A stretch of 64,000 nucleotides of DNA from an uncultured Parcubacteria group bacterium (GTDB lineage Bacteria > Patescibacteriota > Patescibacteriia > UBA9934 > CAMTUG01): positions 79,434-143,433 of the forward strand of contig CAMTUG010000002.1 in NCBI GenBank assembly GCA_947084965.1. Direction: 5' to 3'. Positions within the stretch are counted from its first letter, which is position 1; the number at the start of each line of letters is the position of its first letter. Below, piece after piece: positions 1 through 53,494 of this stretch. The notes beneath the pieces are model-generated. The model worked only from the letters and a program-made list of their open reading frames with translations, did no database searches and was not told where the DNA came from. The position numbers were made by a program, and so were the translations under genes.

Positions 1-631
1 TGGCGTGCCAGCGACAGTCAAGACGATTGAATACGATCCAATCCGTGGCGCACGTATCGCTCTCATTTCTTACAAGGATGGGGAAAAGCGCTACATGCTT
101 GTGCCTGCTGGCGTGTCCGTTGGGGACACGGTCATGTCTGCCAATGTGAAGGATGGAGCTGAAGTTAAAGTCGGAAATCGTCTGCGCTTGGAATTTATGC
201 CAGTGGGTGCGCAGATTTGTAATGTTGAACTCGACCCAGGCAAGGGCGGCCAGATGGCTCGCGGTGCTGGGGCTACCGCCACTCTCGTTTCGATTGAAGG
301 AAATTTTGCGACGGTGAAATTGCCGTCCGGTGAAGTTCGCAAGGTGCGCAAAGAATGTATGGCCACGATCGGACAGGTCAGCAACCCAGATTGGCGCTTG
401 GTGCGCTGGGGGAAGGCAGGTCGTTCCCGCAACCGTGGGATCCGTCCAACCGTTCGTGGTAAGGTCATGAACCCGGTTGACCACCCGCATGGTGGTGGGG
501 AAGGCCGCAACCCGATCGGTATGCCGTATCCGAAGACCCCGACCGGTCGCCATGCCCTTGGTGTGCTTACCCGCAAGAAAAAGGCGTCGGACGCGCTCAT
601 TCTAGAACGCCGTAAACGCCGCAACGGTTAA
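1..631 (+). CDS. rplB: 50S ribosomal protein L2 (5'-partial, runs off window start)
   Basis: Translation ...[32 protein letters not shown]... is the conserved L2 C-terminal core; first gene of the S10-type block. Confidence 0.9.
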
Positions 632-639
632 TTGCCAAT

Positions 640-969
640 ATGTCACGCAGCTCAAAGAAAGGTCCATACGTGGACGAAAAATTGATGAAGAAGGTAGGAA
701 AGTTGAAGGTCGGCGATGCCACGGTTATCAAAACCTGGGCCCGCGCCTCAACGATCACCCCAGAAATGGTTGGGTTTACCTTCGGCGTGCATAACGGAAA
801 CAAGCATATCAGCGTGCGTATTGTCGAAAACATGGTTGGACATAAGTTGGGTGAATTTGCTCCAACGCGTAAGTTTGTCCGTCATGGTGGTACAGATAAG
901 GGCGCCCCAGCCGCTGGTGCCGCCCCAGCTGCCGCCCCAGCCGCTAAAGCTCCGGCCGGCAAAAAATAA
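640..969 (+). CDS. rpsS: 30S ribosomal protein S19 with Ala/Pro-rich C-terminal extension
   Basis: [15 protein letters not shown]...[22 protein letters not shown]; C-terminal tail [21 protein letters not shown]. Confidence 0.9.
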
Positions 970-972
970 TGT

Positions 973-1374
973 ATGGAAGTGAAAGCATCAACAAATTTCT
1001 TGCGCATCGCCCCACGTAAAGTGCGGCTGGTGATTGACGCTGTCCGTGGACAGAAGATCGATCAGGCGATCATTCGTCTTCGATTTATTGAGAAGGCAGC
1101 AGCAGAACCGGTGCTCAAGTTGTTGAAGTCGGCCGTTGATAATGCCCGTCAAAAGGGGCTCGATGTCTCAACGCTCGTTGTGAAGGAGATCCTTGCCAAT
1201 CAAGGCCCGATCATGTATCGTTACCGCCCCCGCGCGATGGGTCGAGCGACCCCGATTCGCAAGCGGACGACGCACGTGAATGTGGTTTTGGAAGGAAAGG
1301 AAGGAACAGAGAAGAAGGAGGAAAGTGGAAAGAAGAAAGTGGAAAAGAAGGTAACCACAAAGACAAAGAAATAA
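973..1374 (+). CDS. rplV: 50S ribosomal protein L22 with Lys-rich C-terminal extension
   Basis: MEVKASTNFLRIAPRKVRLVIDAVRG... L22 fold signature; KKEESGKKKVEKKVTTKTKK tail. Confidence 0.9.
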   Translation: MEVKASTNFLRIAPRKVRLVIDAVRGQKIDQAIIRLRFIEKAAAEPVLKLLKSAVDNARQKGLDVSTLVVKEILANQGPIMYRYRPRAMGRATPIRKRTTHVNVVLEGKEGTEKKEESGKKKVEKKVTTKTKK

Positions 1375-1375
1375 T

Positions 1376-2038
1376 ATGGGTACCAAGGTCAATCCACGCG
1401 CACATCGCCTTGCCACCATTCAGCCGCCGGATGCTAAGTGGTTCGCCCGCGGGGCACGTTTCCGCCAATTCTTGATGGAAGATGTTAAGATTCGTGCTTT
1501 CCTTACCAAGAAATTGCGTGAGGCATCGGTCGATCGCATCACGATCGAACGCACCAACCAGAACGTCAGCATCACCATCCATACCGCAAAACCAGGTGTG
1601 GTTATCGGTCGCGCCGGTGCCGGGGCAGAAGATATCAAGAAGGAATTGAAGAACCTCTTCTACCGCGGTCGTCGTGTCAACATCAACTTGAACGTGCAAG
1701 AAGTCGCCCATCCAACGAGCTCGGCCGCCATCGTTGCGGACCAGATCGCGATGGAGATCGAAAAACGCATGCCGTTCCGCCGTTCCATGAAGACCGCCAT
1801 TGAGCGGGTCATGAAGGGTGGGGCACTCGGGGTGCGCGTCAAGTTAGGTGGTCGTTTGAACGGGGCAGAAATCGCGCGCACCGAAGCGCTCTCTTCTGGA
1901 ACGATCCCGCTGCAGACGATGCGTGCAGATATCGACTTCTCCCGCAAGACCGCCAACACGATGTACGGGGCGATCGGTGTCAAAGTCTGGATCTATCGTG
2001 GTGAGATCTTCGAAGAAAAGAAAAAATCCGCTGAATAG
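1376..2038 (+). CDS. rpsC: 30S ribosomal protein S3
   Basis: [12 protein letters not shown]... KH-domain S3 sequence; start fused as TAATATG. Confidence 0.92.
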
Positions 2039-2043
2039 TTGAT

Positions 2044-2457
2044 ATGTTCATCCCGAAGAAAGTCAAACATCGTAAATGGCACAAAGGACGAGCGAACGGC
2101 AAGCGCATTGCTTCGTCTAAGCTTACCGTTGCCTTCGGCGAGTTTGGCTTGAAAGCCACCACGGAATCCTGGGTGACCAGCCGGCAGATCGAAGCGGCGC
2201 GTCGCGCCATGACCCGCTACGTCAAACGCGGAGGCAAGATCTGGATTCGCATCTTCCCTGACCATCCAATTACCACCAAAGGGGCCGAAATGCCGATGGG
2301 TAAAGGAAAAGGTGCCGTGGATCATTACGTCTGCCCGGTTCGTCCAGGTACGGTGATGTTCGAGATGGGTGGTATTCCAAAGGCCACAGCCGAAGAAGCA
2401 TTCCGTCTGGCTGCCTACAAACTTCCGGTCAAGACCAAGTTTATTGAACGCACCTAG
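2044..2457 (+). CDS. rplP: 50S ribosomal protein L16
   Basis: [16 protein letters not shown]... canonical L16. Confidence 0.92.
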
Positions 2458-2458
2458 T

Positions 2459-2653
2459 ATGAAATTGGCAGATTTGAAAAAGAAGTCGATGACCGATTTG
2501 GACAAGCTCATGGCCGAGCATCGCTCGCGCCTCCAGGAGTTGTCCTTCAAATTGAACGCCAATCAGGTCAAGAACGTGCGCGAAGTTCGCGTCGTTAAAA
2601 AAGAGATTGCACGTATTCTCACCTTGAAGAACGCCGCCAAGGCCGCCAAGTAA
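2459..2653 (+). CDS. rpmC: 50S ribosomal protein L29
   Basis: MKLADLKKKSMTDLDKLMAEHRSRLQELSFKL... ; the ORF-track start at 2369 is an upstream extension overlapping rplP. Confidence 0.85.
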   Translation: MKLADLKKKSMTDLDKLMAEHRSRLQELSFKLNANQVKNVREVRVVKKEIARILTLKNAAKAAK

Positions 2654-2655
2654 TT

Positions 2656-2895
2656 ATGGAAGCAACTATCACCAAGCGCCGCATCGAAGGAATCGTCGTC
2701 AGCAATAAAATGATGAAGACGATCGTGGTTCGTGTTGACCGCACACTCGTCCACCCGAAATACGGCAAGCGTTATGTGGTTTCTAAGCGGTTCAAAGTCC
2801 ATGTCGAAGGCGACAAGCCAGAAGTGGACACCTTGGTGACGATTGAAGAATGCCGACCAATATCAAAGGATAAACGATTCCGACTTGTGAAATAG
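2656..2895 (+). CDS. rpsQ: 30S ribosomal protein S17
   Basis: MEATITKRRIEGIVVSNKMMKTIVVRVDRTLVHPKYGKRY... Confidence 0.9.
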   Translation: MEATITKRRIEGIVVSNKMMKTIVVRVDRTLVHPKYGKRYVVSKRFKVHVEGDKPEVDTLVTIEECRPISKDKRFRLVK

Positions 2896-2986
2896 TATGA
2901 AATTCGAATCTCTAAATACGAAATCAGAAACAAATCAGAAATTTCAATTTCGAATTTCGAAATTCGGATTTCGAATTTAATCAGAT
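2896..2986. repeat. TTCGAAAT-rich imperfect inverted-repeat element, copy A (between rpsQ and rplN)
   Basis: gaaattcgaatctctaaatacgaaatcagaaacaaatcagaaatttcaatttcgaatttcgaaattcggatttcgaattt; same motif family as 8810-8927 and 9723-9840. Confidence 0.6.
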
Positions 2987-3358
2987 ATGGTTCAACATCG
3001 CTCAATGATCGGCGTCGCGGATAACACAGGGGCTAAAAAGCTCCAGGTGATTCGTGTCCACGGTGGTTACCAAAAGCGTTATGCCTTTATGGGCGACGTG
3101 GTGACCGCTGTGGTTAAAATTGCCACCCCACACAACGCGATCAAAAAGAGTGACGTTGTGCACGCCGTGATCGTTCGCGCTAAAAAAGAGATTCGTCGCC
3201 CGGACGGTTCGTACATTCGCTTTGATGAAAACGCCGCCGTCATCATCGATCGCAAATCGAAGGAACCGAAAGGCACGCGTATCTTTGGACCGGTGCCACG
3301 CGAACTGCGCGATCTCGGGTTTACGAAGATTATTTCCTTGGCCCCTGAAGTGCTCTAA
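2987..3358 (+). CDS. rplN: 50S ribosomal protein L14
   Basis: [24 protein letters not shown]... Confidence 0.92.
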
Positions 3359-3359
3359 T

Positions 3360-3686
3360 ATGAAGCTTAAAGTTGGCGACAAGGTCCGTATCATTACGGG
3401 CACAGAAAAAGGCAAAGAGGGGAAGATCACTCAGGTGTTCCCGAAGGATTCGCGTATCATTGTGGAAGCAATCAACGTCAAGACCAAGCATTTGAAGGGC
3501 CGCAAAGGCAGCGCTCAGAAGGGTCAGAAAGTTGAATTCGCCGCCCCAATCCATATTTCTAATGTTGCCCTCGTCGGTTCTTCCATCAAGTTCGGCCGCG
3601 TTGGAATGAAGATGTTGAAAAAAGACGGCAAACTGGTAAAGACCCGCGTCTTGCACAAGGCCGGTAAGGTTGAAGACATCGCCTAA
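3360..3686 (+). CDS. rplX: 50S ribosomal protein L24
   Basis: MKLKVGDKVRIITGTEKGKEGKITQV (KOW motif); ORF-track start 3222 is an in-frame extension into rplN. Confidence 0.88.
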   Translation: MKLKVGDKVRIITGTEKGKEGKITQVFPKDSRIIVEAINVKTKHLKGRKGSAQKGQKVEFAAPIHISNVALVGSSIKFGRVGMKMLKKDGKLVKTRVLHKAGKVEDIA

Positions 3687-3687
3687 T

Positions 3688-4251
3688 ATGATCAAGCTCA
3701 CCTCTGAAATGTATCGCAAAGAGATCGCGCCGGCTTTGAAAGAAAAGTTCGGTTGGTCCAATGTGAACCAGGTGCCGGTGATCAAAAAGGTGACCTTGAA
3801 CGTCGGCTTGGGCAAGGGGCTTAAGGATTCGCGTTTCACCGACGCGGTGGAAGCGACCTTGACCCGCATCGCCGGTCAAAAGCCGGTCAAAACGCTCGCT
3901 AAGAAGTCGATCGCCACGTTCAAAATTCGTCAAGGGATGCCGGTTGGGATGATTGTTACTTTGCGCGGAAAGCGCATGTGGGCCTTCATCGACAAGTTGA
4001 ACAAGGTGGCGTTCCCGCGCGTCCGCGACTTCCGTGGGATCGGGGAGAGCGCGATTGACAAAGCCGGCAATTTCTCATACGGTTTCCGCGAGCAGCTTGC
4101 CTTCCCAGAAGTGGGGGCAGACGAAGCGGAAATTCCGCACGGCGTGCAGGTAACCATTACCACCACCTGTCGTACGCAAAAGGAGGGATTGGCGCTTTTC
4201 ACCGCCCTCGGATTCCCGTTCGCCAAAAAGGACGGCAAGAACAACAAATAA
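3688..4251 (+). CDS. rplE: 50S ribosomal protein L5
   Basis: [30 protein letters not shown]... Confidence 0.9.
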
Positions 4252-4252
4252 T

Positions 4253-4438
4253 ATGGCCACGCAGTCGCAGATCGCAAAATCCAATCGCAAACCGAAGTTC
4301 ATGACCCGTGTCGTGCGCCGATGCTGGCGCTGCGGACGTCGTCATGGATTTATCCGCGATTTTAATCTCTGCCGTATCTGCTTCCGTGAGTTGGCCGTCA
4401 AAGGCGAGATCCCGGGCGTGACTAAAGCCAGCTGGTAA
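4253..4438 (+). CDS. rpsZ: 30S ribosomal protein S14 type Z (zinc-ribbon)
   Basis: 61 aa, [20 protein letters not shown] = CxxC...CxxC S14-Z. Confidence 0.88.
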
Positions 4439-4445
4439 TCACATT

Positions 4446-4838
4446 ATGATCACCGATCCGATTTCAGACATGTTGACCCGAATCCGCAACGCCTCCAAGG
4501 TTAAAAAGGGCGAAGTGGTTTTGCCGTCTTCTATCATCAAATTCTCGATCGCTAAGATTCTTCAGAAGGAAGGATATGTCGCGACGGTGAATGAAACTGT
4601 TGACGGGTTCCGCAAAACGCTGACCATTGGCTTGAAGTACGAAAATGGTATGCCAGTGGTGCATGAAGTGAAGCGCGTCAGCAAACCGGGCCGCCGTGTC
4701 TACGCCAAGTTTGACAAGTTGCCACACGTCCTTTCCGGAATCGGGATGGCGATCATCTCGACCCCGAACGGTTTGATGACGAATAAAGAAGCGCGCGCCC
4801 GTAAGTTGGGTGGCGAGGTGATCTGCGAAATTTTCTAG
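4446..4838 (+). CDS. rpsH: 30S ribosomal protein S8
   Basis: MITDPISDMLTRIRNA... Confidence 0.92.
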   Translation: MITDPISDMLTRIRNASKVKKGEVVLPSSIIKFSIAKILQKEGYVATVNETVDGFRKTLTIGLKYENGMPVVHEVKRVSKPGRRVYAKFDKLPHVLSGIGMAIISTPNGLMTNKEARARKLGGEVICEIF

Positions 4839-4839
4839 T

Positions 4840-5397
4840 ATGTCACGCATTGGTAAACAACCTGTGGTCATCCCGAGCGGCGTCGATGTGACGCTTGCGA
4901 ATGGTTCGATTACGGTCAAGGGTCCGAAGGGGACGCTCTCCCGCGCCATCCACCCACGGATGACTGTGACGCTTGGAGAAGACGAAGGACAAAAGACGGT
5001 CAACGTTTCCATCGGAGAACAGGACGACGTCGAAGTCCGTGCGTTGTGGGGCACGACGCGCTCCAACATTCAGAACATGATCGTCGGTGTTGTTGATGGA
5101 TTCAAAAAGGCGTTGGAAGTTGTCGGTGTCGGGTATCGCGTCAACGCGCAGGGGAATAAAGTTGTCCTTGATGTTGGTTACTCCCATTCTGTAGATTTCA
5201 TTCTGCCAGAAGGAGTGAAGGCAGAAGTAGAAAAGAACACCTTGACGCTTTCTGGTATCAATAAGGAAGTTGTCGGTGAAGCTGCCGCTCAAATCCGTCG
5301 CATCCGCAAGCCAGAACCGTATGGCGGTAAAGGGATTAAGTATGTGGACGAAGTGATTCGTCGTAAGGCTGGTAAGGCCGCCAAGACCGGCGAATAA
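4840..5397 (+). CDS. rplF: 50S ribosomal protein L6
   Basis: MSRIGKQPVVIPSGVDV... two L6 repeats. Confidence 0.92.
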   Translation: MSRIGKQPVVIPSGVDVTLANGSITVKGPKGTLSRAIHPRMTVTLGEDEGQKTVNVSIGEQDDVEVRALWGTTRSNIQNMIVGVVDGFKKALEVVGVGYRVNAQGNKVVLDVGYSHSVDFILPEGVKAEVEKNTLTLSGINKEVVGEAAAQIRRIRKPEPYGGKGIKYVDEVIRRKAGKAAKTGE

Positions 5398-5400
5398 TCT

Positions 5401-5760
5401 ATGAAGGACGTTGTCAAAGAAAAGTTGCGAAAAGCAAAACGCCGCGCCATCCGGGTGCGCGCGAAGATTTCGGGCACCAGCGCTCGCCCTCGTCTGTCGA
5501 TCAAGCGCTCGGCTAAGCATCTGTATGCCCAGTTGATTGATGACGTTGCTGGAAAGACGCTTGCCGCTGCCTCGGACACAAAATTGACCGCCGGCAAACC
5601 GCTTGAACGCGCAGGTGAGGTTGGGAAGGCGTTGGCTGAAGCGGGCAAGAAGGCTGGCATCACCTTGATGGTCGTTGATCGCGGTTCTTACAAATTCCAC
5701 GGTCGTGTCAAAGCGCTCGTCGACGCCGCAGTGGAAGGCGGTATTTCGATCACCAAGTAA
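5401..5760 (+). CDS. rplR: 50S ribosomal protein L18
   Basis: ...[18 protein letters not shown]... Confidence 0.9.
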
Positions 5761-5762
5761 GT

Positions 5763-6362
5763 ATGGAAAAGAAAGATTTTGGTAATAAGAAACAGGGTGG
5801 CCAAGGTGGCCAACGCGACGGACGCGGCGGAGGCCGTGGACGTGGTGGTCGTGACAATCGTCGCGACGAACCAAAGGAATTTGATCAGAAGATTTTGGAT
5901 CTTTCCCGCGTTACTCGTGTGACGGCTGGTGGCAAGCGCATGCGCTTCCGTGTCCTGTTGGTCATCGGTGACCGCAAGGGTCGCGTCGGATTTGGGGTAA
6001 CCAAGGGCGCGGACGTGCAGATCTCGGTTGATAAGGCGTTGCGTCAGGCTAAGAAGCGCTTGATCAAAGTGCCGTTTGTGAATGAAACGATCCCATTCCC
6101 GGTCACGGCCAAGTTTGCTGCGTCGGTCGTCCTCTTGAAGCCAGCTCCGAAAGGGACTGGGCTCAAGGCGGGGGGCGCTGTTCGATCCGTGCTTGAATTC
6201 GCTGGTGTCCCGAACGCGGTTTCAAAAAATTTGGGAGCCTCTAACCCGATTAACACCGTTAAAGCAACGTTTGAAGCGCTTAAGAAGCTTTCAGAAGGAA
6301 CGAGCACGCTTCAACGCAAGAAGTCTCAGACGTCTGCTGCGGTGAAGGAAGAAAAAGAATAG
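5763..6362 (+). CDS. rpsE: 30S ribosomal protein S5 with Gly/Arg-rich N-terminal extension
   Basis: GGQGGQRDGRGGGRGRGGRDNRRDE then LSRVTRVTAGGKRMRFRVLLVIGD S5 core. Confidence 0.9.
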   Translation: MEKKDFGNKKQGGQGGQRDGRGGGRGRGGRDNRRDEPKEFDQKILDLSRVTRVTAGGKRMRFRVLLVIGDRKGRVGFGVTKGADVQISVDKALRQAKKRLIKVPFVNETIPFPVTAKFAASVVLLKPAPKGTGLKAGGAVRSVLEFAGVPNAVSKNLGASNPINTVKATFEALKKLSEGTSTLQRKKSQTSAAVKEEKE

Positions 6363-6363
6363 T

Positions 6364-6798
6364 ATGGCAGTTGGCATGCACAACATGAAACCACCGGCCG
6401 GGGCGAAGCGCAATCGTAAGCGTGTTGGTCGCGGGCTCGGTTCAACCGGTACCTACTCCGGTCGCGGTGGAAAAGGACAAACAGCTCGTTCCGGTGTTTC
6501 TGGTTTGAAGCGCCTTGGGATGAAGCGTTGGGTTTTGGCTCAGCCAAAAGTCCGCGGGTTCAAATCCTTGGCCCGTGAGATGTTTGTGGTCAATGTTGGC
6601 TCGCTTGAAAAGGCCTTTAGCAAAGGCGGGGAGGTCAACCTTGCTGTCCTAAAGGAAATCGGCCTCGTTCCAAAAACTGCCGCCCATGCTAAACTTCTGA
6701 GTAAGGGGGATCTCACGGTCGCTTTGAAGGTGACAGGAATGGCCGTTTCGGCTGCAGCAAAAGAAAAGATCGAAAAGGCTGGAGGTTCGGTTAGTTAA
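6364..6798 (+). CDS. rplO: 50S ribosomal protein L15 (directly follows rpsE; no L30 gene)
   Basis: ...KRNRKRVGRGLGSTGTYSGRGGKGQ... Confidence 0.9.
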   Translation: MAVGMHNMKPPAGAKRNRKRVGRGLGSTGTYSGRGGKGQTARSGVSGLKRLGMKRWVLAQPKVRGFKSLAREMFVVNVGSLEKAFSKGGEVNLAVLKEIGLVPKTAAHAKLLSKGDLTVALKVTGMAVSAAAKEKIEKAGGSVS

Positions 6799-6810
6799 AT
6801 TTCAACGCGT

Positions 6811-8076
6811 ATGAACGTGTTCCTTCGGATCTTCCGCATTAAAGAATTACGGACAAGCATCCTCTTTGTGTTAGGGATGCTTGTTATCTTTCGGTTAGCG
6901 GCCCACGTTCCGGTTCCGGGGGTGGATCCGTCAGCCTTGACCTCTCTTTTCCAGGGGAACCAGGTTCTTGGACTGCTAAACCTTTTTTCCGGCGGGACGC
7001 TTGAAAACTTCTCGATCGTTGCGCTGGGAATTGCCCCGTATATTACCGCTTCGATTATCTTCCAGTTGTTAGCCATGATCATCCCTTCGTTTGAAGAGAT
7101 GCAAAAAGAAGAAGCGGGTCGTCGCAAAATCAACCAGTACACCCGTATCGCCACCGTTCCGCTCGCCTTTTTGCAAGGCTATGGGATCATCAATTTGCTT
7201 GCGTCTCAAGCCCAAGGACTGATCGTTGATACTGGATGGTTAACGATGCTCCTCATCATGACGACGATGACGGCCGGCACGATCTTCCTGATGTGGCTTG
7301 GTGAATTGATCTCAGAACGCAACATCGGAAACGGTATTTCGATCTTGATCTTCGCTGGAATTATCGCTGGATTACCGACAACGTTTCAGCAGGTGCTCGC
7401 GACCTTTGATCGTTCCCAGGTTTTCGACATTCTGTTGATCCTCGCCTTGGTCATTGTGACGATTGTCGCGGTGGTGATCATCAACGAAGCCCAGCGCAAT
7501 ATCCCGATCCAGTACGCCCGGATGCAGCAAGGCGCGCGTTCGCTTGGTGGTGTTTCGTCGAACTTGCCGTTGCGTGTGAACATGGGAGGAATGATCCCGA
7601 TTATCTTTGCGGTGTCGATCATTCTCTTCCCACCGACGATGGCTCAGTTCTTCCTTCGTGCTAAAACAGAATGGATTGTGAACGCGGCTCAGTTTACGAT
7701 CGATATCTTCACCAACCAGCTCTTCTACGGGTTGATCTTCTTCCTCCTCGTCTTCGGATTCACCTTCTTCTATTCCGGGGTTGTTTTCCACCCGGATCGC
7801 ATTTCGGAAAACTTGCAGAAGCAGGGCGGCTTTGTTCCGGGCATTCGCCCAGGTCGCCCGACCGCCGAATACTTGCAGTGGGTCACCAATCGTATCCTCC
7901 TTCTCGGAGCCACCTACTTGGCCGTTATCGCGGTCCTCCCGATTGTGGTGCAGCAGGTAACGGGTACAGCCCAATTGGTCGTCGGTGGCGCTTCGGTTAT
8001 CATCATCGTCGGTGTTGTTATCGACCTTATCAAACAGATTCAGGCACAACTCTCGATGCACGAGTACGAGCATTAA
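6811..8076 (+). CDS. secY: Preprotein translocase subunit SecY
   Basis: 10-TM protein in the canonical rplO-secY position; LIFAGIIAGLP motif. Confidence 0.92.
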   Translation: MNVFLRIFRIKELRTSILFVLGMLVIFRLAAHVPVPGVDPSALTSLFQGNQVLGLLNLFSGGTLENFSIVALGIAPYITASIIFQLLAMIIPSFEEMQKEEAGRRKINQYTRIATVPLAFLQGYGIINLLASQAQGLIVDTGWLTMLLIMTTMTAGTIFLMWLGELISERNIGNGISILIFAGIIAGLPTTFQQVLATFDRSQVFDILLILALVIVTIVAVVIINEAQRNIPIQYARMQQGARSLGGVSSNLPLRVNMGGMIPIIFAVSIILFPPTMAQFFLRAKTEWIVNAAQFTIDIFTNQLFYGLIFFLLVFGFTFFYSGVVFHPDRISENLQKQGGFVPGIRPGRPTAEYLQWVTNRILLLGATYLAVIAVLPIVVQQVTGTAQLVVGGASVIIIVGVVIDLIKQIQAQLSMHEYEH

Positions 8077-8176
8077 AAGTTAGAGGTCAGAGGTTGGGGG
8101 AGAGAGGTTGGAGGGGATCTGCGCATCTCCTCTTTCTTCTTTCCTCTTTCTTTTAACCTCGGTATACTCTCCTCGT

Positions 8177-8809
8177 ATGAAAAAGATCCTCTTATTTGGG
8201 CCCCAAGGTGCAGGCAAAGGCACGCAGGCAGAGCGTTTGGCAAAGCATTTGAATCTCCCTGCGCTGTCCATGGGTGATTTATTGCGTCGTGAGCAGGCGA
8301 AGGGGAGCGAAATCGGCCGACAGATCGTGGAGATTATGACCCACGGCGGGTTGGTATCTGATCAGATTGCGGTGGAGGTGCTCAAAGCTCGATTGAAAGA
8401 ACCGGATGCGGCCGGGGGGTACATTATCGACGGCTATCCGCGCAACATGGAGCAGTACAAGGCCTACGTCGCCTTTGATCACCCGACCGACGTCATCGTC
8501 ATCGACGTGCCAGACGAAGAGTCACTCAAACGTCTCGCTGGTCGTCGCACCTGTGTAGGTTGTGGCAAGGTCTATCACATTGATTTCGCCCGCCCTAAGG
8601 TGGCAGATATCTGCGATGTTTGTGGTGGATCGCTTGTGCAGCGCGAAGACGATAAGCCAGAAGCGATCCTGAAGCGTTTGGGGATTTATCATAACGAAAC
8701 AGAACCGATGGCCAAAGAATTTGAAGCCCTTGGTGTCCTCCGCCGAGTGGATGGAATGGGATCGATCGACGAGGTGGAAGCAAAAATTCAAATGGCCCTT
8801 GGAGTGTGA
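8177..8809 (+). CDS. adk: Adenylate kinase (zinc-lid type)
   Basis: MKKILLFGPQGAGKGTQAERLA (P-loop); CVGCGKVYH...CDVCGG zinc lid; ORF-track start 8108 is an N-terminal overcall. Confidence 0.9.
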   Translation: MKKILLFGPQGAGKGTQAERLAKHLNLPALSMGDLLRREQAKGSEIGRQIVEIMTHGGLVSDQIAVEVLKARLKEPDAAGGYIIDGYPRNMEQYKAYVAFDHPTDVIVIDVPDEESLKRLAGRRTCVGCGKVYHIDFARPKVADICDVCGGSLVQREDDKPEAILKRLGIYHNETEPMAKEFEALGVLRRVDGMGSIDEVEAKIQMALGV

Positions 8810-8927
8810 AAACTCGAAATGTGAAATCCGAAATTCGAAATAAATTTGAATCGGAGATAGAAAATGTTCAAATTCGAATTTTTCGGTTTCCGGTTGTTTC
8901 GAATTTTGGATTTCGGATTTAATACGT
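8810..8927. repeat. TTCGAAAT-rich inverted-repeat element, copy B
   Basis: gaaatccgaaattcgaaataaatttgaa ... ttcaaattcgaatttttcgg ... tttcgaattttggatttcggattt; the arms are reverse complements. Confidence 0.6.
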
Positions 8928-9722
8928 ATGGCGATGACTAAAACAACAGAAGAGATTGATGCGATTCGCGAAGGCGGGGCGTTATTGTCGCGTTCGTTGC
9001 AAACGGCGATCGATGCGGCCAAGCAAGGGGTGACACTGCGTCAGCTCGATAAGATTGCGGAAGAGGCGATTCGTGCCGGTGGAGGAACGCCGTCGTTTTT
9101 GGGATACAAATCGCGCAGTAGCGACGAAGGATTTCCTTCCACCGTTTGCATTTCGGTCAACGACGAAGTCGTTCATGGGTCGGGCGCACGCGATGTTGTT
9201 TTGAAAAATGGAGATCTCCTCGGACTCGATATCGGCTGTTGGTACAAAGGATTGTGCACGGACATGGCGGTGACGATTCCGGTCGGAGGGTTCAAGGCGA
9301 TCCCGGACAAGCACAAAGAGTTGTTAACGGTGACGCGGGCATCGATGATGGCTGGGATTGAGGTCGCACGTGTTGGTGGAGATATCAAAGATATTTCTCG
9401 GGCGATCGAAGAATACGTTCGACCGTTTAAGTTTGGGGTTGTCCGGGCATTAGTCGGACATGGGGTAGGGCACAAAGTTCACGAAGATCCGCACGTGCCG
9501 AATTTTATTTCGAACCAATTTCCTTCTGTGCCGATTCAGAGCGGAATGGTGTTGGCGATTGAGCCGATGCTGACGCTTGGCGGCTGGCAGGTAGAAACAG
9601 GGGATGACGGTTGGACGATCAAGACGGTCGATGGCTCACTCGGCGCGCATTTTGAGTTAACAATTGCGGTGACAAAGGATGGGGTGGAGATTTTGACCCC
9701 TCCGCCAAATGTGGGGTTTTAA
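8928..9722 (+). CDS. map: Methionine aminopeptidase type I
   Basis: pita-bread metalloprotease motifs ...DIGCWYKGLCTDMAVT...VGHGVGHKVHEDP... Confidence 0.9.
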   Translation: MAMTKTTEEIDAIREGGALLSRSLQTAIDAAKQGVTLRQLDKIAEEAIRAGGGTPSFLGYKSRSSDEGFPSTVCISVNDEVVHGSGARDVVLKNGDLLGLDIGCWYKGLCTDMAVTIPVGGFKAIPDKHKELLTVTRASMMAGIEVARVGGDIKDISRAIEEYVRPFKFGVVRALVGHGVGHKVHEDPHVPNFISNQFPSVPIQSGMVLAIEPMLTLGGWQVETGDDGWTIKTVDGSLGAHFELTIAVTKDGVEILTPPPNVGF

Positions 9723-9840
9723 ATTCGAAATACGAAATCCGAAATTCGAAACAAATTCAAAGTGGAAACAGGAAGTTTGCAAACTTTCCTTTTCCTATTT
9801 CTGATTGTTTCGAATCTCGACATTCGAATTTAGAGTTTCT
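9723..9840. repeat. TTCGAAAT-rich inverted-repeat element, copy C; contains perfect palindrome AAGTTTGCAAACTT
   Basis: aaattcgaaatacgaaatccgaaattcgaaacaa ... ggaagtttgcaaactttcc ... ttgtttcgaatctcgacattcgaattt. Confidence 0.6.
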
Positions 9841-10233
9841 ATGCGCTTACTAGGAATTGATTACGGACTAAAAAAGATTGGCCTCGCCATCGGTGACGAC
9901 GAAGCAGGCGTCGCCGCTCCGTTAGAGGTGATTAGAAATGATGGAGAGATGACGACGGAGCTTCTGGCTAAGCGTATTCGTGACGAAGAGATCGATGCAG
10001 TTGTTTGTGGGGCGCCCCTTTCACAGGGTGGACATCACTCGAGCGATCAACTCGATAAAACTCGCGCCTTCATGGAGTCGCTTCGGAAGCAGGTGACCAT
10101 TCCGGTGTACGAGGAGGATGAGAGTTACACCACCAAAGAAAGTATTCGCATCGCGCGCGAGGAAAAATCTGGGATCGACGAAGATGCGCTGGCGGCATCC
10201 CTAATTTTGCAACAGTTTTTGAACCGCACCTAA
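9841..10233 (+). CDS. ruvX: YqgF/RuvX-like putative pre-16S rRNA nuclease / Holliday junction resolvase-like
   Basis: MRLLGIDYGLKKIGLAIGDDEAGVAAPLEVI... RNase H-like YqgF signature. Confidence 0.8.
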   Translation: MRLLGIDYGLKKIGLAIGDDEAGVAAPLEVIRNDGEMTTELLAKRIRDEEIDAVVCGAPLSQGGHHSSDQLDKTRAFMESLRKQVTIPVYEEDESYTTKESIRIAREEKSGIDEDALAASLILQQFLNRT

Positions 10234-10240
10234 AAGCAAC

Positions 10241-10290
10241 GACCACCCCCGAGGAGTAGCGACGAGAGGGTCGCTGCATGGGGGTGGTCT
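10241..10290. terminator. GC-rich hairpin element (CGACCACCCCC ... GGGGGTGGTC) between convergent genes; member of a repeat family
   Basis: cgaccacccccgaggagtagcgacgagagggtcgctgcatgggggtggtc; ~40 nt of it recurs reverse-complemented at 50431-50480 and, related, at 48822-48882. Confidence 0.5.
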
Positions 10291-10304
10291 TGTCGTTCGG
10301 ACTA

Positions 10305-11273
10305 CTACTCGTCGTAGTAGTCGTCGGGGTACTCGTGGTCGGATGGTTCAAGGACCCCGTCTTCATAGCCGGTGCCGTCTTCGTCCTCCTTCGGCGGGAC
10401 GATCGGGAGGGCCTGGTCCTCGAAGACGACGATCCGGTCGTGGGCGTTCCGCTGGCCGGGCTTCTGCTCGCCGCGCCGGAAGGCGAGGGAGTAGGGCCCG
10501 ACCGAGGCGAAGACGAACATGTCCGGGTGGCGGGTCCGCTCGTTGCGGCCGACCGTGAGGTCGATCGCCGAGGCGCCGCTGCCGCTGTAGACCACGAGCG
10601 TCTCGCCGGGGAGCGGCACCACGCGGTGGCCGATGAACTCGCCGACGCGCTGGAAGTAGCTCCTGGGCCCGTGGATGTTTTCGACCCGCTCGCCGAGCCG
10701 CTCCTTGCTCCCGTTGCTGAAGACCCAGTGGTCGCGGGTCCACGGCTTCAGGGTGAGGGCCTGCTCCCACTCGACGGTCTCGCAGCCGAGGTAGTCGAGC
10801 TTGTTGAGCGCCAGCTTCATCTCCACCCCCTTCGCGGGGTCGGCGAAGGTGATGGTGACGATGGGGGTCTTGTTGCGGTCGATCCAGCCCTGCTTCACGG
10901 TCAGCGTCACGCCCTCCTTCGGGGTGAGGGTGATGACCTCGCCGTCGAGCTTGGCGCCGAAGGGCTCGCCATAGCGGACCGCGTCCTGCGCCCGACTGGA
11001 CTCGAATCGGTCGTTGTTGAACCGGTCGAAGTAGCCGCCGGGCCGGGGGAGGTAGACCCCGAGGCAGGACCCGAGCACCCGTTCGAGCTCGCTCCAGTTC
11101 TCGTTGGCTTCGAGCGCCATGCGGATCCCGCAGGCGACCATTCGGTGGTCGGTCCCGATCCCGACCCCGCGACCGTAGGGGTCGTAGATGTAGGTCGTGC
11201 TGACGGGCCGGCGGAAGCCGATGATCTGCTTCATGGACATCGGAAAATCCTCCTCTTCACGTGCGGAGTGCAC
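10305..11273 (-). CDS. Hypothetical protein in a strongly GC-rich, GC3-biased island (possible start at 11240, MSMKQ)
   Basis: 322 aa ORF; visibly higher GC than flanking ruvX/recO; acidic C-terminal tail; own TTGACA-N18-TAATCT promoter upstream. Confidence 0.6.
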   Translation of the reverse strand: MHSAREEEDFPMSMKQIIGFRRPVSTTYIYDPYGRGVGIGTDHRMVACGIRMALEANENWSELERVLGSCLGVYLPRPGGYFDRFNNDRFESSRAQDAVRYGEPFGAKLDGEVITLTPKEGVTLTVKQGWIDRNKTPIVTITFADPAKGVEMKLALNKLDYLGCETVEWEQALTLKPWTRDHWVFSNGSKERLGERVENIHGPRSYFQRVGEFIGHRVVPLPGETLVVYSGSGASAIDLTVGRNERTRHPDMFVFASVGPYSLAFRRGEQKPGQRNAHDRIVVFEDQALPIVPPKEDEDGTGYEDGVLEPSDHEYPDDYYDE

Positions 11274-11323
11274 GGTGGTGCTTCTCGCGCTTCATGCGCG
11301 GAAGTGGCCTAGATTAGCATCAA

Positions 11324-11351
11324 AAGCCGATTCTGTCAAGACAGAATCGGC
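11324..11351. promoter_or_regulatory. Perfect 13-2-13 palindrome overlapping the -35 box of the minus-strand promoter, in the divergent recO intergenic region
   Basis: agccgattctgtc aa gacagaatcggct; TGTCAA (=TTGACA on minus) lies in the right arm. Confidence 0.4.
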
Positions 11352-11372
11352 TGAATATGGGAAAATTGACTC

Positions 11373-12143
11373 ATGTCCGTAACCTTTCGCACTACTGGAA
11401 TCGTTATTGCCATGCGCGATCTGTTTGAACACGATCGTGTCTATTCGGTTTTAACCGCTGAGCACGGGAAGCTCGAGTTGCGTGCCCGCGGGTCGCGGAA
11501 GATCTCTTCGAAACTCTCGGCGCACCTCGAACCGTTCGCTCTTTGTGATCTGATGGTTGTGCGTGGACGATACGGTGACTTGGTTGCGGGCGTAGAGCGC
11601 CTCGAGTCGTATCGATCAATTCGTGCGGACATGGATAAGCTCGAACTCGCTTGGCACACCTTGGCGTTGGTCGAGATGTCGACGCGAGCGCGGCTACACG
11701 ATCCGGTGATGTTCGACGAAGTCCGTCGTTGGTTGACGTTCATTGATGGAGCGCCAGAGTTGACTGCAGATCGCGCGGCCTTTCTTTCTGGAAGTTTCAC
11801 CCTTAAACTCCTCGCCATTCTTGGGTTTCGTCCAGAACTTTTGTGTTGCGTGAACTGCGAACGCGGCATCGCCCCGATGGGCTACTCGTGGCACGGGTTG
11901 AAAGGGGGGGTCGTTTGTCGCGATTGCTGCAGTCGCGAGCCAGAGCAGTGGTTTTCTGCCCGCCGCATTGATGACAATTCGCTTAAGCTGATCCGCTACG
12001 CCATGAGCGAGCACTTCGAGCATCTCCTCGACATTCGTTTGCCAGGCCCGATTCTTTCTGAATATCACGCCGTCATTGAGTCCTTGGTGGTCGCACACTT
12101 TCCCGTTATTCCCACCGTCTCTTTTTCGCGCACTGCTGCCTAA
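11373..12143 (+). CDS. recO: DNA repair protein RecO
   Basis: OB-fold N-terminus and CCVNCERG...CRDCC zinc-finger C-terminus. Confidence 0.85.
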   Translation: MSVTFRTTGIVIAMRDLFEHDRVYSVLTAEHGKLELRARGSRKISSKLSAHLEPFALCDLMVVRGRYGDLVAGVERLESYRSIRADMDKLELAWHTLALVEMSTRARLHDPVMFDEVRRWLTFIDGAPELTADRAAFLSGSFTLKLLAILGFRPELLCCVNCERGIAPMGYSWHGLKGGVVCRDCCSREPEQWFSARRIDDNSLKLIRYAMSEHFEHLLDIRLPGPILSEYHAVIESLVVAHFPVIPTVSFSRTAA

Positions 12144-16078: not shown

Positions 16079-17491
16079 ATGCAGCGCACATGGAATTGGG
16101 AGACGAAAGACAAGGTGGGGGAAGTGGTTCGCTTGAACGGCTGGGTGCATAACGTCCGTCGTGTCGGCGATAAGCTCGTCTTTGTTATTTTGCGTGACGG
16201 TTCGGCTACGGTGCAGTGTGTCTGCTACAAGCCGGATTTAGACGAAGCCACAAACGCGCTGATCGATTCGCTCGGTACAGAGTTTGTTGTCGAGATCGAA
16301 GGTGAGGTGAAGGCGCGTGGGGAGAAGCAGATCAATCCGGATATGGTGACCGGTACGGTCGAAGTCGGAATTAAATCGCTCAAAGTGTTGAACACCTGTA
16401 AGACCCCGCCGTTTGAGATCGACAAAGACACGATGGGGGTGAATGAAGAGTTGCGTTTGAAGTATCGCTACCTTGATCTGCGCTCAGAGCGAATGCACAA
16501 GAATATTTGGATGCGTTCCTCGATTGTGCGGGCCATTCGTGATCATCTGTACGCCTCGCATTTTACGGAGATCGAAACGGCGATTCTGACCAAAGGGACG
16601 CCAGAAGGGGCGCGTGAGTTTTTGGTCCCGTCACGCCTGCACGCCGGGAATTTTTACGTCCTGCCACAATCGCCACAGCAGTTCAAGCAGTTGTTGATGG
16701 TCGGTGGAAAAGAGCGTTACTTCCAGGTGGCCAAATGTTTCCGCGATGAAGACCAGCGCGGCGATCGTCAGCCGGAATTCACTCAGATCGACCTTGAGAT
16801 GAGTTTTGTTGAGCGCGAGGATGTGATGAACGTTATCGAAACGATGTTGATCGAACTCGTGACCAAGTTGTATCCAGGGAAGAAGATTCAGCAAACGCCG
16901 TTCCCGCGTTTGTCGTACAAAGAAGCGATGGAAAAGTACGGCACCGATCGTCCAGACTTGCGCGAAGACAAGAACGATCCGAATCTTCTTGCTTTTGGCT
17001 GGGTGATTGATTTTCCGTTCTTTGAGAAAACCGAGGAAGGTGGGTGGACGTTCACTCACAATCCATTTTCGCGCGCCTTGCCGGAATGTCATCAGGACTT
17101 GATGGACAAGAAGAATATTGAAGGGATCGTCACTTCACAGTATGACGTGGTGTTGAACGGGTTTGAGATCGGTGGGGGATCGATTCGCAACCATGAATCG
17201 CTCGCGCTACAACGCGTCTTCGAAATCATGGGGATCGCCATGGAAGAGATTCAAGCCAAGTTTGGTCATATGCTCGAAGCGTTCGAATTCGGCGCACCAC
17301 CGCACGGGGGGATTGCCCTCGGACTCGATCGCTTGGTCGCCATTTTGCAGAACGAACCAAACATCCGCGAAGTGATCGCCTTCCCGAAGGATGGCCACGC
17401 CTACGACCACATGATGCAAGCGCCGTCGCCGATGCCGGAGAAGTCGCTCAAGGAAGTGCATATCGAATTGGATGTAGAAAGCGGAAAGTAG
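16079..17491 (+). CDS. aspS: Aspartyl-tRNA synthetase (short form, no GAD insertion)
   Basis: motif 2 FQVAKCFRDEDQRGDRQPEFTQIDLEMSF; motif 3 GGIALGLDRLV. Confidence 0.85.
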   Translation: MQRTWNWETKDKVGEVVRLNGWVHNVRRVGDKLVFVILRDGSATVQCVCYKPDLDEATNALIDSLGTEFVVEIEGEVKARGEKQINPDMVTGTVEVGIKSLKVLNTCKTPPFEIDKDTMGVNEELRLKYRYLDLRSERMHKNIWMRSSIVRAIRDHLYASHFTEIETAILTKGTPEGAREFLVPSRLHAGNFYVLPQSPQQFKQLLMVGGKERYFQVAKCFRDEDQRGDRQPEFTQIDLEMSFVEREDVMNVIETMLIELVTKLYPGKKIQQTPFPRLSYKEAMEKYGTDRPDLREDKNDPNLLAFGWVIDFPFFEKTEEGGWTFTHNPFSRALPECHQDLMDKKNIEGIVTSQYDVVLNGFEIGGGSIRNHESLALQRVFEIMGIAMEEIQAKFGHMLEAFEFGAPPHGGIALGLDRLVAILQNEPNIREVIAFPKDGHAYDHMMQAPSPMPEKSLKEVHIELDVESGK

Positions 17492-17509
17492 TAAGCAGAA
17501 AGCGGAGAC

Positions 17510-18211: not shown

Positions 18212-18246
18212 TTCGTGGTACGTAGAAAGAGGTAAGTGGAGACACT

Positions 18247-48192: not shown

Positions 48193-48260
48193 GAGTTTAT
48201 AGGGAAAGAACGGCCTAAATGGCCGTTCTTTTGTTTTGTGGCATAAAGAGCCCAACATAA

Positions 48261-48289
48261 TTGACAAAGTTACATTTTTATGCTATTTT
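48261..48289 (+). promoter_or_regulatory. Sigma70-like promoter TTGACA-N17-TATTTT (shared type with 49019-49047)
   Basis: ttgacaaagttacatttttatgctatttt; RBS aaggaggaagg before ATG 48321. Confidence 0.45.
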
Positions 48290-51652: not shown

Positions 51653-53494
51653 ATGAAGTTTGTCGCATCACTTTTTGTTGCGCTGACGTTAATTGCCACA
51701 CCGATATTTGTCGCGCTCGCCCAGCAGGAAGGGCTCGATACGGTTGGTACAGCGTCAGGACTTGGGAACCAGGATCTGCTGGTGACCATTGGTCGTGTAG
51801 TTCAAGTATTCCTTGGACTTCTTGGTGTTATCTTCCTGTTGCTGACGATCTACGCCGGCTACCTTTGGATGACGTCGCAAGGGGATGAAGAGAAAGTTCA
51901 GAAGGCGATCAACATCATTAAATCGGCGACGATCGGGTTGATCATCTGTCTGGCCGCGTTCGCGATCGCTACGTGGATCGTGAATGCGCTCATCGCAGCG
52001 ACAGGGCTCGGTTCCGACACTACGGACGACAGCGCAACGCCAACCCCGTTCTCGGACGCTCTCGGAAGCGGTGGTATTGAAGATCATTATCCGCCACGCA
52101 ACGGAACGGATATCGCCCGTAATACAAAAATTATCGTCACGTTTAAAGAAGAGGTTTATATCCCTTCACTGATTGTTGATTACGATACAGGGGCGGATGC
52201 GTCAGATGTGAGCGATGACACCGCTCCAGCCGTCGCTTATTTGAACACAGATAATGTGACGATCTCCTGTGTTGATCCGACCACAGCAGAGGAGACGGAT
52301 CTTACTTCAACGGAAGTGACCGTGGCCTTTACGGAAGATTTACAAACATTCGTGTTCGATCCGCCCGTTCTCGGTTCGTCTGTTTATGAAACGACATGCA
52401 CCGTTGCTCTTGGTCCGGGTATCTTAGAAGCGGATGGAGCGAATGTCTTCACCGGTTCAAGCGCGGAAGGTTACCAATGGTCATTCACGGTTTCGACCGA
52501 GATCGATACCACTCCGCCGACGATTCGTAGCATCTACCCAACAGAAGGGGCGACAGACGCACGCAATGTCTTAGTGCAGATCGTCTTTTCCGAGGCTGTG
52601 GATCCAACAACGACATCTGGAACGTATGACCTGACAGAGGGCGGATTCACCAACATCCAGGTTCAGTCTGACGAAGACGAAACAGGCACCTACAGCCCAG
52701 TTGCCGGAACATTCGTCATTTCGAGCGGATACACGGTCGTTGAATTTACCTCCGCCGACGCTTGTGGGACGAATTCTTGTGGAGAGACGATCTATTGTTT
52801 GCCTGGGCCGAGTGCTACAGAAGCAACAGAAGAAATTCAACTTGAAATTCAGGCCGCTGACCTCGGAGATTCTCCTCCAGAGGCGGCCACACCGTATACG
52901 GGCGTCGTTGATGTGGCGGGGAATTCCCTTGATGGAAACGACGACGGCACAGCCGGGGATGATGCACGTTCAGATTTTTCTGTCACGGATGAAATCGTTT
53001 TGGCCGGACCTGAGCTGACCGATATCTCACCAAATCCTGTTGAGGAAGATGTCGACGTGGATGCAGATCTGACCTTTATTTGGGATACGATCATGCGTTC
53101 AAGCACACTGACCAACAGCAACATCAGTTTGTACGCTTACCCCGATCACGAATTGTATTACGTCGCTCGCAACAGTTCGTACGACAGTAGTGGGGTGGAA
53201 GTGACAGCAACGACCCAAACCCCGGATCACACCGTGACGGAGATGAGTCATGGGACGTTTGTCGAATCGATTGAAGATGATCCATCAACAGCGGCGGATG
53301 AATCGACCTCACAACTGTATGCTCCATTACTCCCGGACGCAGTGCAGAGCATCTATCAAAACTGTTTCTACCCAGCGGTGGGGCCAGGGGCGAGCGAGAC
53401 GACTTCGTGTGATGGTACGGCCAACAATCCGTACTGCTGCGATGGAGTAGAAGCTGACGCTCCGTTTAACGCCACGACATTCTCATGTCCTTAA
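51653..53494 (+). CDS. Secreted/membrane-anchored protein: signal peptide + two-helix pilin-like (TrbC/VirB2-like) module + Ig-like domains + Cys-rich C-terminus
   Basis: MKFVASLFVALTLIATPIFVALAQ ... LLGVIFLLLTIYAGYLWMTSQGDEEKVQKAINIIKSATIGLIICLAAFAIATWIV; same module as the next gene. Confidence 0.7.
   Translation: MKFVASLFVALTLIATPIFVALAQQEGLDTVGTASGLGNQDLLVTIGRVVQVFLGLLGVIFLLLTIYAGYLWMTSQGDEEKVQKAINIIKSATIGLIICLAAFAIATWIVNALIAATGLGSDTTDDSATPTPFSDALGSGGIEDHYPPRNGTDIARNTKIIVTFKEEVYIPSLIVDYDTGADASDVSDDTAPAVAYLNTDNVTISCVDPTTAEETDLTSTEVTVAFTEDLQTFVFDPPVLGSSVYETTCTVALGPGILEADGANVFTGSSAEGYQWSFTVSTEIDTTPPTIRSIYPTEGATDARNVLVQIVFSEAVDPTTTSGTYDLTEGGFTNIQVQSDEDETGTYSPVAGTFVISSGYTVVEFTSADACGTNSCGETIYCLPGPSATEATEEIQLEIQAADLGDSPPEAATPYTGVVDVAGNSLDGNDDGTAGDDARSDFSVTDEIVLAGPELTDISPNPVEEDVDVDADLTFIWDTIMRSSTLTNSNISLYAYPDHELYYVARNSSYDSSGVEVTATTQTPDHTVTEMSHGTFVESIEDDPSTAADESTSQLYAPLLPDAVQSIYQNCFYPAVGPGASETTSCDGTANNPYCCDGVEADAPFNATTFSCP

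Follow-up and report, generated by a model that had tools for sequence, protein, structure and literature searches.

A probable truncated member of a dispersed, heptad-armed palindromic repeat family at the rpsQ-rplN junction of a Patescibacteria ribosomal protein operon

Short palindromic repeats dispersed between bacterial genes include the REP, BIME and REPIN sequences of Enterobacteria and Pseudomonas, the Rickettsia palindromic elements (RPEs) and the miniature elements known as MITEs, such as Correia of Neisseria, RUP and BOX of pneumococci and Nezha of cyanobacteria. The hairpins of Correia elements are RNase III substrates. Contiguous heptads are also known as operators or centromeres, namely the omega protein sites of pSM19035 and the A-boxes of P1 parS, and models for heptad binding are provided by the omega repressor (contiguous heptads of pSM19035), P1 ParB (heptamer A-boxes), CtsR and the cold-shock proteins (RNA heptamers). 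The junction of rpsQ and rplN, the genes for ribosomal proteins S17 and L14, is the boundary between the S10 and spc operons in E. coli. Tandem heptamers between genes have been described as the STRR of cyanobacteria, as the TAACTGA repeats of Beggiatoaceae, Cyanobacteria and Bacteroidetes (PMC4679880) and as the heptanucleotide elements of Geobacter metallireducens (PMC2700814).

Here we analysed a stretch of 64,000 nucleotides (hereafter the window), which begins inside an S10-spc cluster of ribosomal protein (rp) genes in the order L2, S19, L22, S3, L16, L29, S17, L14, L24, L5, S14, S8, L6, L18, S5, L15, SecY, Adk and Map. The gene rpmD (L30) is missing between rpsE (S5) and rplO (L15), as expected for the candidate phyla radiation. 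On the + strand, rpsQ occupies positions 2656-2895, with the stop codon TAG at 2893-2895, and rplN occupies positions 2987-3358, with its ATG at 2987; the Pfam domains Ribosomal_S17 and Ribosomal_L14 were found in the same genes of a second assembly, L081, where rpsQ is identical. The L14 protein was 80-85% identical to L14 of its best relatives, Candidatus Uhrbacteria and other Patescibacteria. The two genes are separated by an AT-rich spacer of 91 nt (2896-2986, hereafter copy A) that ends at the rplN ATG, exactly as delimited in the first-pass annotation, and its G+C content is 26% (0.26-0.31) versus about 0.5 in the flanks.

The spacer is built of short repeated units. The motif TTCGAAAT matched four times inside 2947-2975 and 11 times in the whole 64-kb window, where 5.2 matches were expected. 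Using TRF, we detected 5.7 units of AATTTCG with a period of 7 at 2940-2978 and 1.9 units of an 11-mer at 2921-2941, and the period-7 autocorrelation of the spacer was 0.58, compared to 0.16-0.35 in ordinary spacers. The imperfect inverted repeats reported earlier are present, with arms of 26-34 nt that are 74-85% complementary. The structure proposed on that basis was also recovered on folding, albeit in a weak form: the predicted free energy was -19.8 kcal/mol, compared to -13.8 +/- 2.6 for shuffled sequences (z -2.27), 8 of 200 shuffles were equally good, and the reverse strand folded equally well (-23.9). The predicted hairpin is therefore a modest gain over chance.

As such repeats break assemblies, an assembly artefact, or a product of local slippage without relatives elsewhere, has to be considered, and L081 (the Logan assembly of run ERR3478686) indeed breaks inside the third repeat copy (copy C, see below). 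Against this, L081 was 100% identical to the window over 7.7 kb (2053-9749), so that the spacer is not the single-assembly quirk that had been feared, with the reservation that L081 may derive from the same reads as the assembly of the window. Moreover, a profile built from unrelated contigs also matches the stretch of the left arm that is not repetitive (..CGAAACAAAT..). We therefore give an artefact almost no credence.

Following the check proposed at first pass, we asked whether orthologous operons of relatives carry the element. The sequence CGAAATNCGAAAT was found in 0 of 80 relatives, and among 35 Patescibacteria loci the gap between the S17 and L14 genes was 10 nt or less in 25 (often stop-T-ATG), 18-32 nt in 8 and more than 100 nt in 2. 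In the closest relative, L013, the junction is TAATATG (gtgaaaTAATATGgtt), while the window reads gtgaaaTAGTATG, followed by 87 nt and ATGgtt. By comparison with L013, the window still has the complete old coupling junction at the 5' border of the insert: TAGTATG (2893-2899, + strand), in which one nucleotide separates stop and start. The old ATG at 2897 and the present rplN ATG are exactly 90 nt apart. From these sequences we infer that the element entered by insertion, because the relatives have a short junction and the old TAGTATG survives at the left edge. An empty, pre-insertion allele would read as a clean TAGTATGGTT junction.

The spacer also lies at the classical boundary of the S10 and spc units, where the E. 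coli spacer measures 164 nt, and it carries TTTAAT 5 nt upstream of the rplN ATG, which raises the alternative that it acts as the terminator of the S10 unit and/or the promoter of the spc unit. Spacers of 50-130 nt were found at this junction in Actinobacteria and Caldilineae loci. The earlier statement that the S17 and L14 genes are adjacent in nearly all bacteria was thus too broad, and what stands is that a long spacer is unusual within Patescibacteria. Several observations speak against the boundary signal. No sigma-70-like or intrinsic-terminator-like site was found in 2896-2986, and neither promoter-like nor terminator-like sites were found in any of the three window copies of the repeat (A, B and C); the stem is AU-rich and lacks a U-tract, so that the G+C-rich stem and T-run of an intrinsic terminator are not present; the same element occurs at the adk-map and map-ruvX junctions; and relatives have 1 nt at S17-L14. 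A boundary signal is hence very improbable.

Two other Patescibacteria had unrelated hairpins of their own at this junction. In L010 (9895-10000), the hairpin measures 106 nt, has CCGAATT units and folded at -45.4 kcal/mol (z -8.8), and in L018 (9869-10000) there was a G+C-rich inverted repeat of 132 nt. The S17-L14 junction has been struck independently several times. Other rp-operon junctions of Patescibacteria also contained repeats; the loci of the relatives had all been chosen around the rp cluster. Six rp-operon spacers of L029 (3963-9577, CAZFTR010000019) were hairpins with tandem ACAGTTA / TAACTGT arms and z values from -4.5 to -6.9. In L025 (Kuenenbacteria, JACQWZ010000095), direct heptad arrays occupied three consecutive junctions (119-185, 560-610 and 1042-1085), with nine TTAATTG units directly upstream of rplN, GAATGCA/GAATTAA units after rplN and six ATTTAAG units after rplX. 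L196, an Uhrbacteria-like metagenome contig whose EF-Tu is 84% identical to that of L004, carried on its minus strand (730-1330 and 3690-4760) a run of seven ATTTCGN units, with 9 nt left between their end and the rplB ATG, as well as four ATATCCA units before rpsS; its spacers of about 100 nt at S17-L14 and about 80 nt at L14-L24 hold other palindromes. The units at further rp-operon junctions were ATTGCGC (L005), ATCCGTA (L031) and of the CGAA type (L177, L196 and L090), and a hairpin was also present in L035.

Within the window, TRF detected period-7 arrays at 8815-8920 and 9721-9751 as well, that is, in the adk-map and map-ruvX spacers, and the elements in these two spacers (copies B and C) had the 18-mer GAAATCCGAAATTCGAAA in common. 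The 18-mer pattern GAAATNCGAAWTNCGAAA was used to scan the JGI metagenomes and IMG/VR, with 114 stretches recovered from IMG/VR. By our estimate, this 18-mer should turn up by chance roughly once in 10^9 bases, and chance matches are not rare in collections of that size; bare pattern matches were therefore discounted, we relied on extended similarity, and only profile matches covering at least 100 positions were counted. With nhmmer, starting from a seed of 13 sequences and keeping copies with at least 100 model positions and E below 1e-8, we obtained at least 55 non-redundant long copies in at least 48 loci, 13 of which are IMG/VR viral contigs. The consensus of this family, hereafter CGAA-N3, is about 150 nt long and extends far beyond the 18-nt pattern: AAATyCGAAnnnCGAAATnCGAAATnCGAAACAAATTCAAATGAcCAAAA - loop - TTTTGaa..ATTTGAATTTGTTTCGGATTTCGnATTTCGTGCTTCGAATTT. 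Its arms are inverted arrays of 7-nt units, each consisting of CGAA and three variable bases, while the other arm reads as the complement with TTCG.

To this family the window was compared using a profile of 35 metagenome and viral copies that contained no window sequence. The profile matched the window at copy C (E 4e-18), copy B (E 3.7e-14) and, in two pieces, copy A, and nothing else was found below E 1. Copies B and C are full-length: copy B (8810-8925, no strand assigned; model positions 1-139) fills the adk-map spacer, and copy C (9721-9838, no strand assigned; model positions 1-146) fills the map-ruvX spacer, with the ATG of ruvX (RuvX by Pfam) at 9841. Copy B folded at -44.7 kcal/mol on the + strand (z -6.2) and -23.6 on the - strand, and copy C at -37.1 (z -5.4). 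In copy A, the left arm at 2900-2947 (AAATTCGAA..CGAAATCAGAAACAAATCAGAAAT) consists of degenerate CGAA-N3 heptads and matches model positions 1-48 (E 1.7e-4), and the right arm at 2948-2978 consists of tandem ATTTCGN heptads up to ..TTCGAATTT, of which 2948-2977 match model positions 116-145 (E 1.9e-5); neither arm was assigned a strand. These are two inverted arrays, each with at least three CGAANNN / NNNTTCG units. The two matches directly abut, model positions 49-115 (about 67) are missing, and the central part of the family (..ACAAATTCAAATGACCAAAA.. loop ..TTTTGAATTTG..) is absent. To judge from the alignment, the S17-L14 element is an internally deleted, decaying and truncated family member, and its weak fold can be attributed to the loss of about 67 central positions.

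A fourth hairpin with a period of 7 (copy D, 8077-8173, + strand, detected by TRF) lies between secY and adk. It falls outside the CGAA family, with a purine arm of AGAGGTN and a pyrimidine arm of CTCTTTC units, and folded at -44.9 kcal/mol on the + strand (z -4.3) and -24.6 on the - strand, with a period-7 autocorrelation of 0.48. The arms of copy D resemble Shine-Dalgarno (SD) and anti-SD sequences. When period-7 autocorrelation was applied to the window's 25 spacers, it flagged only the four hairpin spacers and two short direct arrays near scpA. The latter are AGAAAGC-like period-7 direct repeats without a hairpin, located just upstream of scpA and scpB (17474-17509 and 18212-18246). All four hairpins lie within the first 10 kb of the window, and there were none in the other 54 kb, where a single ORF of 3,305 codons extends over 53485-63402. 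In copies A, B and C, the element starts no more than a few bases from the preceding stop codon, and 5-9 nt separate its end from the following ATG.

The distribution of the family was broad. The host contigs had a G+C content of 0.33-0.67 and the elements one of 0.25-0.54, lower than that of the host contig in all but one locus. The copies lay in co-directional (25), convergent (7) and divergent (3) gene contexts, and a few were inside long ORFs. Pfam analysis of 78 flanking proteins returned 109 families, each matched by one or two proteins; the flanking genes were random housekeeping and phage genes, and no transposase was among the flanking Pfam families shown. An all-versus-all BLAST of 1,858 ORFs lying within 3 kb of elements in 84 loci revealed no ORF family in more than four loci as a partner gene, and those that recurred came from homologous viral contigs. 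Neither a target-site duplication nor a target motif was common to the flanks of 10 full-length copies. The TATG on both sides of copy A is a sample of one and could also be a duplicated start codon needed for viability. Copies on one contig were 54-78% identical to each other, with an inter-contig median of 62%; we rejected recent intragenomic bursts, as identity within contigs was not clearly above that between contigs. A preference for rp operons was likewise rejected: about 7 of 120 listed metagenome loci lay beside translation genes, near the 2-7% of junctions that we roughly estimate as a baseline, and of the 78 flanks of full-length copies a single one was ribosomal.

Some copies had unusual surroundings. 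In L147 (11222-11370) and L101 (5033-5148), a family element sits in frame inside a nonribosomal peptide synthetase (NRPS) adenylation domain, in the interval between A2 (..AGGAYxPIDP..) and A3 (LAYxIYTSGSTGKPKG), is translated as ..SEIRISKFETNTNDQNSNDQNEI..NFEHLDFEFVSDFEFRASN.. and is kept in these two diverged homologues. A full-length copy lies between rplV and rpsC in L177 (4489-4613), where the rplV frame appears to enter the left arm and stop there. In L141 (about 2500-2600) and L142 (about 2800-2900), a separate G+C-rich palindrome carries the heptad array in its loop (..gcagccgaggtaacgaggctc..array..gagcctcctcacgtcggctgc..).

The CGAA-N3 family appears to be undescribed, while its kind, an intergenic palindrome similar to REP sequences and MITEs, is familiar. 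An Rfam search of window positions 1-12000 at E up to 1 returned only chance miRNA-hairpin matches far below threshold, and none of the elements was matched in ten loci that contain full-length copies. No match was obtained either when plasmids and cultured phages were searched with BLAST, a negative that is weakened by the low-complexity filter, and a literature string search retrieved no paper with these repeat strings.

The four period-7 hairpins that fill stop-to-start spacers at the beginning of the window raise the possibility of a selected intercistronic RNA structure in the rp/secY/adk/map mRNA, which would set relative cistron output by RNase III-type processing, as a 3'-exonuclease barrier or through translation coupling. 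In line with this, copies B and D are far more stable in the sense than in the antisense direction, copies A, B and C each close with TAA or TAG 5-7 nt before the next ATG, and comparable hairpins built of other units are seen at rp-operon junctions of L029 (six), L005, L010, L025, L031, L035, L196 and L177. However, the loci of the relatives were all chosen around the rp cluster, the element is absent in most relatives, and across the family the flanking genes are the random set described above. Furthermore, copy A, the element at the junction under study, folds least stably of the three family copies (z -2.3), and its centre is gone. Strand-specific structure, which copy B and its bias had suggested, was rejected on the 25 co-directional family members: the sense strand was the more stable in 12 and the antisense strand in 13 (Wilcoxon p 0.77). 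Both strands of family copies also fold equally well. RNAalifold on 37 copies gave 15 conserved pairs that are nearly all invariant and correspond to CGAA/TTCG, with almost no covariation, so that covariation was uninformative. Overall, we regard a selected RNA structure, the foremost alternative, as unlikely, and the features of the family are those of a REP/REPIN- or MITE-like dispersed palindrome, unlike an RNA motif shaped in one strand. The clustering in the window, together with the analogous hairpins of relatives in loci selected for their rp cluster, nevertheless hints at selection or targeting.

The regularity of the units led us to consider that the CGAA-N3 heptads, direct or inverted, are read unit by unit as sites of an oligomerising DNA- or RNA-binding protein; such a binder could be a mobilising protein, which makes this explanation compatible with mobility. 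Aligned copies of the family show CGAA/TTCG cores that hardly vary and keep an exact spacing of 7 nt, whereas the three intervening bases vary without compensation in the other arm. Single arrays occur, as do direct pairs and inverted pairs of either polarity, and the AT-rich sequence of the arrays is kept inside GC-rich hosts. Binding of cold-shock proteins to heptamers has also been proposed for TAACTGA repeats (PMC4679880). On the other hand, we found neither a candidate protein nor a gene that recurs beside the elements, copies in frame in a coding region and between convergent genes would be odd for operators, and replication slippage alone can keep tandem units uniform. The exact spacing of the cores and the AT-richness in GC-rich hosts fit a sequence constraint, and hence function, as well as they fit turnover. 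We consider a protein-binding array to be distinctly unlikely.

Taken together, the spacer is probably a decaying copy, shortened by an internal deletion, of a palindromic repeat that is dispersed and non-autonomous. This copy would be co-transcribed with its neighbours and be tolerated at a coupling junction, possibly via a relay ORF. Among the options named at first pass, the miniature mobile element is thus the one backed by evidence, as copy A is a truncated member of a dispersed palindromic family and most relatives lack the element at this junction. Solely from its distribution, we infer that the family is mobile. Transcription of the spacer as part of the polycistronic mRNA, which was taken as necessary at first pass, is plausible: copy A is probably transcribed through, because it has no promoter or terminator features and ordinary terminators with a GC stem and T-run exist elsewhere in the genome, for example at 11313-11372 and 48193-48269.

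The gene junctions of the operon suggest how such an insertion might be tolerated. In the rp genes at 640-6800 of the window, junctions take the form TA[AG]-N1-ATG, with exactly 1 nt in 7 of 15, which is also the form of the old S17-L14 junction; SD-like motifs precede 12 of 55 window genes. Because of these junctions and the sparse SD motifs, translation probably depends on termination-reinitiation. An argument from the lack of SD motifs after the hairpins was discarded: the genes that follow the hairpins have none, but neither do 43 of 55 genes. In copy A, the old rplN ATG at 2897 opens a putative relay ORF (2897-2980, + strand) of the ATG and 27 codons (MKFESLNTKSETNQKFQFRISKFGFRI) that ends with TAA at 2978-2980. 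This frame, whose translation is presumed from frame analysis, is in frame with rplN, and its stop lies 6 nt before the rplN ATG, the two being separated by the linker TCAGAT (2981-2986, + strand). Ribosomes that have finished S17 would reinitiate at the old ATG (2897), translate 27 codons, melting the weak AU-rich hairpin on the way, terminate at the TAA and reinitiate once more at the rplN ATG, 6 nt further on, so that coupling would be kept. Effects on mRNA processing or stability would then be incidental, as with REP or Correia elements that lie in operons. Similar frames run from GTG 8821 to TAA 8920 in copy B, 5 nt before the map ATG, and from GTG 9762 to TAG 9831 in copy C, 7 nt before the ruvX ATG. 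Open frames are easily had here, because all six frames of tandem CGAAATT units are free of stop codons, and the relay ORF may be a by-product of such units.

A bolder proposal joins these elements. Heptad-armed hairpins might form a class that has so far escaped description and spreads horizontally, with members in viruses and in bacteria from several phyla and with units read by a putative oligomerising protein. In the tiny, tightly packed genomes of Patescibacteria they might be retained or recruited at rp/secY/adk/map junctions, with lineage-specific units, and tune cistron output there, either as translated spacers of the relay type or as processing sites. We put this forward as a speculation that is quite unlikely to hold as a whole.

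These results indicate that the supposedly conserved S17-L14 junction can absorb an insertion of 90 nt, and a relay ORF from the old start codon offers a concrete possible way for translational coupling to survive it. They add a repeat family new to Rfam and to the searchable literature, which occurs in environmental and viral contigs (at least 48) that differ widely in base composition, can sit in frame in an NRPS gene and is AT-rich even in GC-rich hosts. In practice, such repeats break assemblies of rp operons, which serve as phylogeny and binning markers for genomes of the candidate phyla radiation.

Among known systems, CGAA-N3 shares with the heptamer repeats (STRR, TAACTGA and those of Geobacter) tandem 7-nt units that are mostly intergenic and often end just upstream of start codons, as here, and a patchy phylogenetic distribution suggesting horizontal spread. 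The TAACTGT/ACAGTTA units of relative L029 are essentially the TAACTGA heptamer. The CGAA-N3 unit (CGAAATN), in contrast, is neither TAACTGA nor STRR1-3, and its units form two inverted arrays around a conserved non-repeat core in a hairpin of 45-65 bp, whereas TAACTGA repeats are almost always direct and contain stop codons, which CGAAATT units lack. The omega sites of pSM19035 and the P1 parS A-boxes are likewise contiguous 7-bp units, direct or inverted, but they are few per plasmid and lie beside specific promoters, while CGAA-N3 copies are dispersed. RPEs are similar in being palindromes of 100-150 bp that can sit in frame in protein genes, comparable to the NRPS copies of L147 and L101; they differ in their unrelated sequence and other hosts, and in-frame cases are a minority in the CGAA-N3 family.

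REP-type and MITE-type elements are likewise among the closest kinds. Like CGAA-N3, the REP, BIME and REPIN sequences are short, imperfect intergenic palindromes, often in operons and co-transcribed, which occur mostly in co-directional or convergent contexts and rarely in divergent ones (25:7:3 in CGAA-N3), have no target-site duplication and can form hairpins of about 100 nt from two inverted units. REP sequences have many copies per genome; of CGAA-N3, three copies were seen in the 64 kb covered here. The differences are that the CGAA-N3 termini read AAAT(T/C)CGAA...TTCG(A/G)ATTT in place of the GT[AG]G head, that the arms are tandem 7-nt units, that no RAYT (Y1 transposase) was identified, with no recurrent neighbour in 84 loci and no transposase among the flanking Pfam families shown, and that REP sequences are species-specific, while CGAA-N3 spans contigs of 33-67% G+C as well as viral contigs. 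MITEs resemble it in their size of 90-170 bp, in the terminal inverted repeats, which are present here, in being inserted beside or inside operons and transcribed with them, and in the occurrence of internally deleted variants; they differ in that CGAA-N3 has no TA or other target duplication of fixed length, and in that, in the loci around the elements, we found no parent IS whose ends match. By analogy, the family may thus be likened to REP sequences and DDE-type MITEs and filed in neither class, as it shows neither the REP head nor a target duplication.
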